From the NCBI GenBank assembly GCA_951406725.2, contig OX597827.1, positions 59,892,001-59,956,000 of the forward strand: a stretch of DNA of 64,000 nt. Direction: 5' to 3'. The notes under the pieces were generated by a model. It did no database searches. It was not told the origin of the DNA and was given only the letters and a program-made list of their open reading frames with translations. The position numbers were made by a program, and so were the translations under genes. Source of the stretch: Octopus vulgaris (lineage: Eukaryota). Position 1 is the stretch's first letter; each line of letters opens with the position of its first letter. Shown piece by piece: positions 3,735-62,572 of this stretch.

Positions 3735-4035
3735 TTGGGGCGAGGTCATTTAACCCTGTTATCTCCCTAATTTTGCTCTTGCGTCTCACGTTTGATCTTT
3801 GACTTCTGGCCGAAATCAGATCGCCATGTTGATTCGCTAGCCTCTGCACGCATTTTTTTCTCTCCTTGTTTCTTTCTGTGTTTCTTTTCTGTGTATCTTT
3901 CTGTTGAAGAGCGTAGGCTCGAAACGTAAAAGACTTGTTTTATTTATATTCCTGAGCGCCATACTAAAACAATTGTTTGTTTGTATTCCACCTGCCTTCG
4001 TCTTTTGTTTATTTTCATAAAGCTTCCCGTTATAT
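3735..4035 (+). mobile_element. Hammerhead-bearing Penelope pLTR-like element (family H1) ending in (TA)n
   Basis: 3896-3933: tcttt CTGTTGA a gagc gtag gctc GAAAC GTA aaaga. Related copies at 22398-22580 (-), 26432-26630 (+), 40711-40770 (3' fragment) and 62452-62572 (-). Confidence 0.7.
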
Positions 4036-4040
4036 ATATA

Positions 4041-4169
4041 TAATCAGCCGAAATTACTACGATGATCCGGTTCTTGACTGAAGACTGAGGGTTTCGAATG
4101 TCCTGTCCGTGTTTATTGTATCGTCTTCTAAGAGTTATACGTTCTTGTCCATGTTGTATTTTTCTACAT

Positions 4170-17371: not shown

Positions 17372-17620
17372 ATATATAAATCAATGGAACAAAAACGCAA
17401 TAGAGGGCATTAAAACGTCCGGACAGATAGACGACACAAAGGCGGACAAGAGAAACAACAATTAGGACAGGCAAAAATAAAAGACGGGTCATTCTTGGCT
17501 TTCTTACATCAGTCAAGTACCAGAAGTCACGACCATTTCGGACAGTTACACTTGAGATTGTTCGATCTGGTTGTCCCAACAAAAGTCTAAGCTAAGTGCA
17601 TAAGAACCCGTTGCAGTAAA
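17372..17620 (-). mobile_element. Structured repeat family S1, diverged copy
   Basis: Aligns with 26121-26390 and shows compensatory changes in predicted helices. Confidence 0.6.
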
Positions 17621-18120
17621 GCTAGCGGCAACAAAGACGAAGAAAAACAAACAAACAAACAAAAAACGGAGAACATGGTACACAAACAGGAACACAACAA
17701 GAAATAACAAAAGGCGTCTTTCGACTGAGAACGATTCAAATTGAGCTGGCGTGTGTGAAGTGATGGCATATGTTTTGCTGTACCTATAATTCAAAATGTA
17801 AAGATTTAAAAGCCTTGCCTAACAATGTTACGCTTATTCTACCTCGGAATGAGTACTCATAGCAGCGTAATAAGCAAACGCTCATAAAAGAAATTGCGAC
17901 GCAGATAATTCGGTCTATCGAACAACTGAATCCACATTTTTTTTTCTCTTTTTGTCTTTTGGGTTGGGTCCAGAAAATAATCAAGCGCCTCTCCTCGATT
18001 GACTTTCCGGTCACCTGACCGACGTACCGGTTAGAATCTTTGAAACACCCGCACCTCTTAAATAAGCTGTATGTGTGTGTATATATATATACATCCATAT
18101 GTATATACATATATATGTAT

Positions 18121-22401: not shown

Positions 22402-22580
22402 TAATCAAAACGGGAAAACAGAAAAAACAACAACACGTGGAACAATTACAGTATTATTATTATTAGGCGCTCAGGAAAATGGAAGAAGGAGGGTATGACG
22501 TTTCGAGCGGAGCTCTTCGTCGGAAACATAGGAGAAAGAAAGATCCCGAGACGGGAGGACAGAGGAAAAAAAATTGCAGG
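22398..22580 (-). mobile_element. Hammerhead pLTR-like element, family H1
   Basis: Minus 22494-22530 reads gttt CCGACGA a gagc tcc gctc GAAAC GTC atac. Abuts (TA)n at 22397. Confidence 0.7.
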
Positions 22581-25698: not shown

Positions 25699-26088
25699 GT
25701 TTCAATCTCATTCTGAGATTTAATTATGCTTACTGTTCGTTTTTCGACATCAGTGGCAGACGCCATTAGAAAAACTTATATATGTTTGCAAAGAGGCCTT
25801 CACTTTCATCGCGACCTGGTGGTTACCGCCCGTTGACGAGGGACAACAATCCCGAAACTAGTTCGAGCGTATCCCTCAGGCTTGCGAGGAAGGGATGGCC
25901 TCCCTTTGCAAATACTCCAAGGACACTGATATTGTGTCTAAAGCCAGCTAGAGATGAAGATCTCTTGGGGCTATAAAGCTACAGTAACACCCCCTCCCCA
26001 ATGTGGTTAGCCATGATAAGATGGCTTCTATACTTTACATTATCGAGCGATTACTGTTTCAATCTCATTCTGAGATTTAATTATGCTA
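25698..26088 (+). mobile_element. Retrozyme-like 357-nt unit with 33-bp terminal redundancy
   Basis: ctgtttcaatctcattctgagatttaattatgct at 25698 and 26055. Hairpin-rich interior. Lies between (TATC)n and (TA)n. Confidence 0.75.
25827..25869 (+). ncRNA. Type I hammerhead ribozyme motif
   Basis: cgcccg TTGACGA ggga caacaa tccc GAAAC ta GTT cgagcg, with palindromic stem III AACTAGTT. Confidence 0.8.
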
Positions 26089-26120: not shown

Positions 26121-26390
26121 GTAGAAAAATACAAACTGGGACAAGAACGTAAAACATTTTGAAGACGATACAAAAAACACGGACGGGACATTCGAAGCCT
26201 TCAATCTTCAGTCAAGAACCGGATCATCCTCGCAATTTCGGCTGATTAATCTTGAGATCGCTCCGATCCGGCCCGCCCCAAGGAAAAACTAAGCTACGAG
26301 CATTAGATTTCTTGGAAAAAGGATCGAATGTATACGAAGCAAGGACAGAAAAACGGACGATGCCACACGAATATAAATACAAAAAACAAT
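26121..26390 (-). mobile_element. Structured repeat family S1, longest copy
   Basis: (TA)n on both sides. Predicted helices gggcggg/cccgtcc, ccggatc/gatccgg and tcaaga/tcttga. Confidence 0.7.
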
Positions 26391-26431
26391 ATATATATAT
26401 ATATATATATGATCTCTTGAGCACCAACAGC

Positions 26432-26630
26432 TAAAATATTTTTTCCTCTGTCTTCCCTTCTTGGGATCTTTCCTTCTCCTTGTTTCCGACGAAGAGCTCC
26501 GCTCGAAACGTTAAACCCTCCTTCCCTTCTTTCCTGAGCGTCAATAATACTTTAATTGTTCCACGTCCTCGCATTGCTGTGCTTTTTTTCTCTCTTTTTT
26601 TCTGTGTTTTCTTGTTTTGATTAACTTTAT
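26432..26630 (+). mobile_element. Hammerhead pLTR-like element, family H1
   Basis: 26482-26516 reads gttt CCGACGA a gagc tcc gctc GAAAC GTT aaac. Ends in (TA)n. Confidence 0.75.
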
Positions 26631-29643: not shown

Positions 29644-29691
<48 letters not shown>

Positions 29692-29697
<6 letters not shown>

Positions 29698-30240
29698 GTG
29701 AAGGAAGAACGAAGATTCTACATAATTCCTTTTATTATTTTCTACACATGTTTCAAAGGCCGCAAAATTCCAAATTCGGATTGAATAAGGAGACCATTTG
29801 CAGCATTCTCTTCAGGAAAATCCAGGAATTTAAAAATCCAAAACAAATGCGCAGCAAGGTAGAACAAGGTAGAGCAAGGTGCTTTCATGGGCTCCTAAGG
29901 AGCGCTTTGTTCTACCTTGCTGCGCATTTGTTTTGGATTTTTAAATTCCTGGATTTTCCTGAAGAGAATGCTGCAAATGGTCTCCTTATTCAATCCGAAT
30001 TTGGAATTTTGCGGCCTTTGAAACATGTGAAGAAAATAATAAAAGGAATTATGTAGAATCTTCGTTCAGCTCCATTTCTTCCCTTCACTAAATATATTGA
30101 ACTTCAATTATCCGCGCTAAGGCACGGTTGAGACACCCCAAGGTCGTAACTTCAACCGTGTCTTTTCTGTTGTGATTTTTGCTACCCGGGATCGGTTAAA
30201 TTTTGAATAATCCTTAACAAGATAATTCATTTATCCATTT

Positions 30241-36022: not shown

Positions 36023-36276
36023 CGACACGTGACACACGTCGCTGCATAAGTTTTGCTGTTATTCATATTGTTATACGTTGTTTTACATTGTACATTTGTT
36101 ATGGTTACTTAGTTAAACAAACCAGGACCTCGGGGGAACTGGTTAGTTCTTTCCTATTTGTAGCCCCTATGGACTACTTTGGTATTTGTTCAGGTTACCA
36201 CACCCCTCTTTCTTTTTTATTTTGCTAAAATCAAAGATTTCTCCTATTTCTTACTCTCCCTGTGTTTAACATAACT

Positions 36277-36645
36277 ATGCTAAGGATAGACAGTATAAAT
36301 GCTCGTGGCCTAGAGTCACCTGGGAAGCAGGGACACTTGCTCAATCACCTCAGGTCACTACGTTTGGATGTGATAGTCGTCAGCAAAACCAGGGTTTTCG
36401 ACTCACGCAACTTTGCTCCCATTTTTGACGAATTTGAGATTTACGCATCTCTCAGTCGGTTTGGAATGGGAGGAGGAGAGGCAGTGCTGCTCAGGAAAGG
36501 ACTGGATCTCAAGGTACGGACGATCTTCCTGGATCCTGGATCCTGGAAGGCAAGTTAGTCCTGGACGTGAGTAATAGCGAAGGTTGTGCTTTTAGACTGG
36601 TCGCTGTCTATGCCCCGACAAGGACGGGGCAGCCAGATTTCTGTT
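36277..36645 (+). pseudogene. APE endonuclease N-terminus of a Tx1/L1-type LINE ORF2 (frameshifted, truncated)
   Basis: MLRIDSINARGL..LRLDVIVVSKT..GGGEAVLLRKG..DP, then EGKLVLDV..FRLVAVYAP. The duplicated ggatcct at about 36531-36545 disrupts the frame. Confidence 0.8.
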
Positions 36646-36717: not shown

Positions 36718-37320
36718 GTTCGTACTTCGGTGTGAAATAATTTTTTCCACAGGTTTTTTCGACTGCATTCAACGTAGCTCATCTCCAAACCCACTACAAG
36801 CCAGAAAAAAGTGGTGGTGGCGACTTCGGGGTTTCCCATCAACGGAGTTTTGTTTCGCAGATATTTTCTTTTCCAGGTTATTTTGCATGCTCTCAACGAA
36901 TGTGACATCGAAATCACGCGCAAGCCGCTCCTTTCTCCAGAAGAGGAAAGATTTAGCTGCTGTTTCTAGCACGTCATGCTGCCATGTAACAGCTATTTGC
37001 GATAAAGGACCCGAAACAGAAGTTACGTGGTAACAGGGCGTACCAGAAATAGCAGCCAAATCTTACCTTTTCCTGGGAAAGGAGCCATTTATGCGTGATT
37101 TCGATGTCACATTCGTTGAAATCATGCGAAATAACTTGGAAAAGGAAAAGAAAATATTCAAAACAAAACTCAGTTGTTGGGAAACTCCGAGGTCCCCATC
37201 ACCCTTCCCTCTTTCCTTTCAGGAAAAACGTAAGTTGCGGTGGGTTTGCAGGTGAGATATACGTTGAATGTACTCGAAAAACCCTGTGGAAAAAAAATCA
37301 TTCCATACCGAAGTACGAAC
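36718..37320. repeat. Diverged ~600-bp fold-back inverted repeat
   Basis: 36718-36990 is the reverse complement of 37021-37320, for example caacgaatgtgacatcgaaatcacgc and gcgtgatttcgatgtcacattcgttg. Confidence 0.85.
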
Positions 37321-46223: not shown

Positions 46224-46464
46224 TTTTGCTTTCTTCTTTCTTATTTGTGTGTCTCTCTTTACTAACGGTCAGCCATTTTGTATTCCTATTGTATGTGTCT
46301 TCATTTGCGCATGCGTATATCTCTATGTGTGTCTATGTTTAGTTAGTGTGTGTGTGGGGGTGGAGTGCCTGTAATATTTGTATCTCCTGTATATATACGT
46401 TCGTGTAATTTGTTTTTGTTTTTGTTTATTTTTATTATTATACATACATACATACATACTTACA

Positions 46465-46770
46465 TAAATCAAGAAATTCCAATCAAGTATGATTTTTACG
46501 TTTTCTCTATTGCAATTCTTAATATTTTGCAATTTTACAATTTTACAATATTGAAAGAAACAAGGACTTCCATGCGTTACACAATCATCAGGTTTATCTA
46601 GTGACAGCCGTGTTCCAGGAACACGACTGTCACTACATAAACCTGATGATTGCGTAATGTATGAAAGTACTAGTGTATTTTAATATTGTAGAATTGTAAA
46701 ATATATTGTAAAACTTGCAAGTAGTAAAACGTGAAAATTAGATTAAATTGGAATTTCATTGATTAATATA
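46465..46770. mobile_element. Diverged fold-back element with paired hammerheads
   Basis: Apex gtgttcc a ggaacac at about 46610-46624. Plus 46639-46676 reads aaac CTGATGA t tgcg taa tgta t GAAA gtac TA gtgt. Mirror copy at 46558-46595. Confidence 0.75.
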
Positions 46771-56844: not shown

Positions 56845-57300
56845 TTCTCTATTTTCAGCTCTGAGCCGTGGCTATGCTGATGCACCGCCGTTTTGCTACA
56901 CTGTTATTACTAAGAGCCTCCTCTAATATGTGGCACTTGGTGAAGAATGGAGTTTGATATAGCTACCCTGATTTGCACCTCTTGCCGTGAGGTAGGTTCA
57001 TCTGGGACTCTCAACAAGAAGAGGTCAAGCTTTGATTTAAAAAACCCTACATCTACTTTGTGCAAGTTCCTCAGACTCTTCAGGAGAACATTAAAAAGCT
57101 GTGGGCCCTTAAAACCCAGGTTGTTGCAGTAACTGGTCCTGAAGTGTGATGGCATTGCTGTGACCTTTGGCACTATGCAGTGTCGTCCCGTTCTGGTATT
57201 GGTGTAGCTTTCAATGTCAAAATTTGGCACTATTCCTTCCAGGATCTTCCAGATATACATCACTGCATACCTCTCCCGTCTTCTCTCCATAGAGTAGAGT

Positions 57301-57302
<2 letters not shown>
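56845..57302 (-). mobile_element. 3' end of a CR1-like LINE (ORF2 C-terminus and 3' tail)
   Basis: LYSMERRRERYAVMYIWKILEGIVPN..GPQLFNVL..FKSKLDLFLLRVPDEP..SNSILHQ is typical of post-RT C-termini of the CR1 group. The tail is ggcggtgcatcagcatagccacggctcagagctgaaa. Confidence 0.8.
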
Positions 57303-57334
<32 letters not shown>

Positions 57335-57551
57335 ATGTATGTATGTATGTATGTATGTATGTATGTATGTATAAATGAAATAAAAATTGCAATGTGTGAA
57401 ATAAGTATTTATTTTCATTGACTACAAAAAGAATTCTAACAAGATCTATATAAATGAGCAATCTGATTTGTCTTCATTGGAATAGCATTAAAAGACAAGG
57501 CATGCTGGAGTCTGCTGCTGATTACAGAAATATTTGTAGGTTTATATGTAA

Positions 57552-62451: not shown

Positions 62452-62572
62452 ATTTAAAGAAAAACAAAAGACGAGGACTGGTGTATGAACAACAAGCAAG
62501 TGTATTAGTTTGACGGTAGGGAAAATGAAGAAGCCTTTTACGTTTCGAGCCTACGCTCTTCAACAGAAAGGA
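62452..62572 (-). mobile_element. Hammerhead pLTR-like element, family H1
   Basis: Minus 62534-62571 reads ccttt CTGTTGA a gagc gtag gctc GAAAC GTA aaagg, the same core as 3896-3933. Confidence 0.75.

Follow-up and report, generated by a model that had tools for sequence, protein, structure and literature searches.

The window, the whole 64,000-nt stretch of Octopus vulgaris contig OX597827.1 that was analysed, contains three copies of a structured repeat (S1). With the 26121 copy as query, nhmmer returned exactly three matches within it: 26121(-) (E 8e-65), 17372(-) (6e-11) and 4041(+) (9e-19). These belong to three repeat families, designated A, B and C, and their features are collected in Table 1. 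The family A copy, whose 5' end lies 137 nt upstream of the predicted cut, holds a structured region at ~26189-26330, with four further helices beyond the two described in the first-pass annotation; its stem II carries one G.A mismatch where the family majority has U-A. The 17372 copy shows decay in the form of U at position A9, one stem III mismatch and an upstream deletion. The 4041(+) copy, which had been thought to keep both helices, is 5'-truncated and lacks the 5' strands of the two.

Table 1. Features of the structured repeat in the window; strands of the 26121 copy are listed 5' to 3' along the minus strand after the whole copy.
Feature	Position	Strand	Remarks
Family A repeat copy, 5'-truncated	26121..26392	(-)	(TA)n on both sides; 3' end fixed near 26121
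Outer helix P0, 5' strand	26325..26330	(-)	partner 26189-26194, containing GAAU
Helix y, 5' strand	26318..26322	(-)	partner 26198-26202, two nt past A9
Hairpin z	26278..26315	(-)	flush with G10.1 at its end
Stem II 5' strand (10.1-10.6), moved upstream	26272..26277	(-)	
Helix a, 5' strand (ccgga)	26265..26271	(-)	partner 26219-26225
Predicted kink-turn, non-bulged strand	26262..26264	(-)	partner 26226-26231: 3-nt bulge + tandem G.A/A.G; by eye
Block S	26250..26261	(-)	stem III strand 16.5-16.1 (26261-26257), C17 (26256), stem I strand (26255-26250)
Predicted cut	between 26256 and 26255	(-)	after AUC
Block G	26232..26244	(-)	stem II 3' strand (26244-26240), G12-A13-A14 (26239-26237), stem III strand from A15.1 (26236-26232)
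Block C without its stem II strand	26205..26217	(-)	stem I strand (26217-26212), CUGAAGA (26211-26205)
Older family B copy, decayed	17383..17757	(-)	core 17506-17580
Family C copy (very young family)	4041..4167	(+)	start 9 nt past predicted cut; blocks G and C only

Read on its minus strand, the 26121 element contains a whole hammerhead core (CUGANGA, C-GAAA and U-H) together with the three stems I, II and III, in the strand order y-z-II5'-a-III'-UH-I'-II3'-GAAA-III-a'-I-CUGANGA-y' as taken from the sequence. The blocks follow one another as S-G-C with crossing stems, and the 5' strand of stem II lies upstream, so that A9 and G10.1 are separated; helices y and z bridge the gap. All 11 conserved core nucleotides and H17 are present once the strands are read II5'-S-G-C. 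The core C3-U4-G5-A6-N7-G8-A9, G12-A13-A14, A15.1-U16.1, H17 is found in six of six family majorities, which read CUGA[A/U]GA, CGAAA and U-[C/A]; per copy it is intact in 24/26 (A), 24/30 (B), 17/20 (C), 9/25 (D), 10/20 (E) and 10/15 (N), truncated copies being counted as misses. No stem II strand follows within 0-2 nt after A9; its partner lies upstream in all six families, forming 5-6 bp, and helix a (4-9 bp) is likewise present in each. The links A9-y', y-z and z'-II measure 0-2 nt (0, 0 and 0 in D and E), which gives the layout of a four-way junction. For family N the automatic calls of y and z failed, and parsing by eye gave a flush z hairpin and a short y. Folding the window copy to its nested MFE recovers P0, y, z, a and III, at unremarkable stability (z -0.72; other strand -0.77).

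Several elements of this architecture had been recognized in the first-pass annotation. Its two interleaved helices with compensatory changes are borne out in the sequence of 26121(-) and 17372(-), and the AUC, ccGAAAu and CUGAAGA/CUGAUG words are all in place. Its description of the hammerhead resemblance as only partial no longer holds, given the 11 core nucleotides, H17 and stems I-III. The later GAAU, which it had listed after CUGAAGA/CUGAUG, belongs to the outer closing helix P0; the core GAAA is that of ccGAAAu, and when GAAU is taken as the core GAAA of a type I or type III hammerhead, the stems do not close. Of the two interpretations it offered, a variant hammerhead is supported by the core and stems, and an unrecognised ribozyme class is not needed.

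A kink-turn consists of a 3-nt bulge followed by tandem G.A/A.G pairs between two helices. The segment linking helix a to stem III has a 3-nt bulge and tandem G.A in families A, B and N; in families C, D and E the GA pairs are retained and the bulge amounts to a net 2 nt. From comparison by eye with the consensus, the stem III arm is predicted to contain a kink-turn; none was seen by eye in the Acropora Naiad ends among the supplement passages covered.

Support for the stems comes from comparison of six family majorities, built from 26 (A), 30 (B), 20 (C), 25 (D), 20 (E) and 15 (N) copies. MAFFT alignment across families recovered the core words and misaligned the stems, so pairs were counted by core-anchored parsing. 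In stems I-III, 96/96 cells pair over the six families, as against 25-45/96 when strands are slid by 1-3 and 0.54-0.59 across families, a score that overstates independence because it is partly by construction (partners were chosen for best pairing) and because A, B and C are related to each other, as are D and E, leaving ~3 or 4 independent lineages. The genomic copies, whose collection had been proposed in the first-pass annotation, show two-sided changes at 14/16 stem pair positions across the six majorities, the exceptions being G10.1-C11.1 and A15.1-U16.1. A pairing descriptor found 4 matches in 741,776 bases, 3 of them from sequence-unrelated families; five shuffles gave 1, 0, 0, 1 and 0. 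In the proposed Rfam search, nothing in the window reached gathering score, and at four loci nothing covered the motif at E<=5. The fold is very probably real, with the hammerhead split between A9 and G10.1.

Other known ribozymes were considered and rejected. HDV-like, twister, pistol and hairpin ribozymes and the group I intron have their own strand order and conserved words. Rfam gave no match to any of the four ribozymes or to the group I intron core, and the word resemblances seen in one family are missing in the other. Hammerhead types I, II and III (CGS, GSC and SCG, without crossing stems) were set aside likewise: the order here is S-G-C with crossing stems, as the first-pass annotation had rightly sensed in finding a misfit to the type I layout, and no Rfam match covers the motif.

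Genomic context places the motif within a mobile element, which the first-pass annotation had missed: it is the 3' part of a high-copy Penelope-type element. Six repeat families in the genome (A, B, C, D, E and N) keep the split layout; the elements are 5'-truncated Penelope-type ones, arranged in tandem and inserted in (TA)n, with the motif ~135 nt from their fixed 3' end. First-look candidate matches, which are not copy numbers, amount to 2144 for A, 2346 for B, 1072 for C, 5775 for D and 4128 for E, and 40 candidates were scored for each of these five. Copies share a common 3' end, mostly followed by (TA)n, and vary at their 5' ends. The full unit of family A is ~830 nt long and non-coding; units stand head to tail at a spacing of 830-857 nt, with an eight-unit array on C6. 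The features of a derivative of a Penelope-like element are all found, namely a fixed 3' end, variable 5' truncation, head-to-tail partial tandems and microsatellite targets. In family C, 40/40 scored matches are 100% identical to the query, which points to recent movement. Contigs from seven different runs cover parts of units, in a form from which ends, strand and circles cannot be read. A short GNRA-type hairpin is common to A, B and C, lying in A and B ~100-150 nt upstream of P0, and in the 5' part of the unit (L028, L181) a word resembling a splice donor stands close to the unit start, ahead of a long pyrimidine tract; these are possibly a second structural signal and an intron, respectively.

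Coding capacity was sought around these copies. No ORF is attached to copies of A-E within 1.5 kb. One family N copy has ORF remnants upstream that look by eye like a Penelope RT thumb, with no significant Pfam match. Naiads have a characteristic ORF type (N-terminal GIY-YIG, CxC linker, C-terminal RT); with no ORF beside A-E, this comparison falls to family N, which matches a Naiad end and whose remnants have no Pfam match. Penelope-type families with intact ORFs are present in the genome. Among GIY-YIG loci (30 of 150 matches), nearly all are elements with a C-terminal nuclease. A young Penelope-type family (L196-L205) has intact 781-aa ORFs (RT and C-terminal GIY-YIG), a tandem-repeat 3' region, a degenerate minimal hammerhead and (TA)n ends; no split hammerhead was found in this family among the matches listed, and it is a candidate mobiliser of the split-hammerhead units. 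Directly behind HERO-type RT ORFs, the split-hammerhead descriptor found nothing in 20 of 150 matches to one RT fragment; the 20 loci, which may represent other families, include one E-like copy 1.4 kb away and one weak match inside an ORF. Several further families (L366-L385) have ORFs of ~720-900 aa with an RT, which we take to be HERO/Hydra-like from its look, and a GIY-YIG-like C-terminus, many of them arranged as inverted pairs.

The window also contains other repeats. A type I hammerhead-like motif with UUGACGA at 25815-25884 (+), matched by Rfam Hammerhead_HH9 at 29.9 bits (gathering score 52, E 4e-4), probably marks where another Penelope-type repeat ends. At 3903-3930 (+), 26484-26512 (+), 22435-22575 and 62462-62570, the 3' ends of another repeat family carry minimal hammerhead-like words whose first core word is a variant; two of them adjoin S1 copies, and one such family ends a C-terminal GIY-YIG ORF (L208, L005). 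Long inverted repeats at 29689-30097, 2089-2559, 36718-37320 and 46461-46770 are probably MITE-like DNA elements. LINE ORF fragments lie at 56910-57473 (-), presumably a CR1/L2-like 3' end, and at 36229-36558 (+), presumably an APE-like N-terminus.

Among the closest described systems are the Naiads, which insert in (TA)n and form 5'-truncated, tandem units (PMC8557442). According to that study, the canonical hammerhead is absent from Naiads, an 'HHR_half_core' occurs in eight, Naiad_Ovul included, and cephalopod Naiads are long inactive. Within the passages of its supplement covered here (58/62 matches of one core word and 10 each of the 43, 23 and 25 for three others, hence not a census of the 54 entries), the split layout with unrelated stems was recognized by eye in Naiad_Obim, Naiad_Ovul, three Acropora entries and ~five more, the last without visible headers (file parts 8, 9, 12, 12 and 19). 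Published Naiad consensus ends from corals, jellyfish and octopus carry the split form by eye. Six nematode-region entries in file parts 13-16 contain an intact CSG hammerhead, also by eye, and several passages in parts 16-18, 25 and 26 fit neither form. In the genome, 301 exact matches were obtained for a 20-nt motif taken from the octopus Naiad end (control 0), and these loci, family N, carry the split layout. Families A-E share with Naiads the (TA)n targets, 5' truncation and tandem units, and their 3'-end RNA layout is identical to that of Naiad_Obim, Naiad_Ovul and Acropora; unlike Naiads they are non-coding, and their relation to a given Naiad rests on layout, not sequence descent. The element is a non-coding one of Penelope type and is likely Naiad-related.

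The positions of 5' ends bear on whether the RNA is cut. Queries ran from CUGANGA to the 3' end only, at 30 loci for each of families A, B and C, so that 5' ends fall freely. The set comprised 89 loci, C locus L277 having been dropped for failed alignment; among the A loci are the window copy and one pair of duplicates, and two C ends were reassigned from -3 to 0, their three letters being part of the TA tract. Between -45 and +43 relative to the cut lie 38 5' ends, 25 of them in -1..+12, 7 in +13..+43 and 6 upstream (binomial p 5e-12); in the same order, C contributes 9, 3 and 2, A 13, 2 and 2, and B 3, 2 and 2. In family C, 4/14 ends fall exactly at the cut (p 1.5e-5; 2e-4 if a shared T is allowed), and two more (L177, L178) come from a separate locus set. 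The pile-up in the old family B is weak (p 0.08), and family A has zero ends exactly at the cut. TA-type microhomology at +7, +9 and +11 can account for part of the family A cluster; of 31 A and C ends, no more than 2 fall at equivalent sites closer to the 3' end (+21 to +33). The 5' ends of young copies, at or just past the predicted cut, would fit an RNA whose own 5' end is the cut.

These observations can be assembled into a mechanism. The transcript would fold P0, y and z around the knot, and the junction would bring G10.1 beside A9, leading to a cut after AUC. Helices y and z, stem II and the core may form a four-way junction, with y stacked on z and stem II stacked against the A9.G12 face in the manner of all hammerheads; helix a and the kink-turn would bend the arm of stem III back so that it reaches the tips of stems I and II. 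From a fixed site ~135 nt downstream of the cut, a Penelope-type reverse transcriptase may then start. If the RNA is cleaved, the enzyme would run off at the cut and yield short copies like 4041(+); if the RNA is uncleaved, or circular after re-ligation, the enzyme would read through and yield long and tandem copies, along the lines of the model in PMC4209133. From the sequences, we consider it probable that a complete SGC-order hammerhead core, broken between A9 and G10.1, self-cleaves after AUC in transcripts of this non-coding Penelope-type element. Against this speaks the anole Penelope, where insertion in vitro did without hammerhead cleavage and zero RNA-seq read ends fell at the cut (PMC11167929).

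It is unlikely, at a chance we regard as small but real, that the fold is genuine and has lost its catalytic activity or keeps it only under certain conditions, serving as a scaffold of hammerhead origin that binds or blocks the reverse transcriptase, with the 5' ends clustered by structure and TA microhomology. Such a scaffold would accommodate the broken A9-G10.1 step and the microhomology sites at +7 to +11, and it has parallels in the anole Penelope, where hammerhead cleavage is dispensable for insertion in vitro (PMC11167929), and in metazoan PLE hammerheads, which have low activity (PMC4209133). It sits poorly with core nucleotides that do not change as the stems are replaced, both among the six families and between phyla, and with the sparse ends at the like sites from +21 to +33; moreover, a reverse transcriptase would first meet the knot at +38 to +44, not at 0.

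The dimers in which PLE hammerheads often work (PMC4209133), the commonness of tandem units and the downstream stem II of 4 bp that D and E allow (with a one-nucleotide bulge) would each agree with an active form that is an ordinary intact SGC hammerhead, in which the bases following A9 pair with the strand ahead of GAAA, or a strand-swapped dimer of two units, the upstream stem II pairing being its off state. We hold this to be somewhat less probable than an inactive scaffold: in A, B, C and N downstream pairing does not exceed 1-2 bp, and it misfits the Acropora and octopus Naiad ends covered, as judged by eye, and the helix a partner follows the upstream stem II strand, just as it follows stem II in the intact nematode CSG forms seen in the supplement. 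An unrelated structured RNA or new ribozyme class, with hammerhead words arising by chance, would explain why zero Rfam hammerhead models match the motif. The tested models are not expected to match a crossed strand order, and in 6/6 families all three stems join the three core words in the register of a hammerhead, making this reading very improbable. The self-cleaving split hammerhead stays the preferred reading of the motif.

If this split hammerhead is active, the stated rule that the CUGAnGA block is uninterruptible would be broken, and non-circular hammerheads, until now rare finds in metatranscriptomes, would number many thousands of copies in animal genomes. It would also offer an answer to why Naiads seemed to lack the hammerhead of other Penelope-like elements. 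Extending this, we lean slightly towards the view that across animal phyla Naiads, like the non-coding passengers they carry, employ hammerheads permuted in a non-circular way: the intact CSG form in nematodes and, in cnidarians and molluscs, the split-core form, whose catalytic strand incorporates a four-way junction. The junction may be a stacking switch that sets the fraction cut, and the cut and re-ligated RNA would serve as template for genomic copies, short as well as tandem. Neither a split-block hammerhead nor a permuted hammerhead in a Naiad is described in the literature covered, with subscription journals mostly outside it.

Animal non-LTR retrozymes and minimal PLE hammerheads provide one point of comparison, being non-autonomous tandem repeats for which an origin from PLE pLTRs and circular-RNA copying are proposed (PMC4209133; bioRxiv 10.64898/2026.07.22.740005). 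The octopus families resemble animal retrozymes as hammerhead-bearing non-autonomous tandem repeats; those carry type I or minimal hammerheads, whereas the units here are 830-857 nt long with a knotted split hammerhead. An internal fixed-site start of reverse transcription, of the kind proposed here, has been shown for the anole Penelope (PMC11167929).

Hammerhead types are defined by the order of the blocks C, G and S (PMC10085705; Eckert et al. 2023). As described there, SGC and CSG hammerheads cleave in vitro, SGC is known only from metatranscriptomes and CSG from two metagenome sequences, and genomes of known organisms have none of such RNAs save one bacterial GCS candidate; its supplement has no match for octopus, Acropora, nematode or kink in the portion covered. 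The same study assumes uninterrupted blocks, with at most 1-2 nt inserted between CUGAnGA and its stems in known alignments, which leaves the break after A9 without tested precedent there; single-nucleotide insertions are known at the A9-G10.1 step (PMC4209133). The octopus RNA is like type SGC (HRIMA-1 and variants) in its S, G, C block order and full core, in its short stem I-stem II link (1-5 nt here, typically 3 there) and in the extra helix that joins the far ends of stems I and II; helix a is the counterpart of the 'I' helix (stem I-II) of SGC and CSG hammerheads. It is unlike type SGC in that block C is broken after A9, which PMC10085705 assumed to be impossible, that the strands of stem II and helix a lie on the 5' side, that y, z, P0 and a predicted kink-turn in the stem III arm are added, and that it resides in an animal genome. 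The predicted kink-turn suggests how stem III could reach the stem I-II helix, a geometry left open in PMC10085705. With SGC order and an interrupted block C, the RNA has hammerhead-like core and stems and falls outside each named type. Compared with type CSG, the circle of strands is identical, and it is opened here between A9 and G10.1 rather than between blocks.
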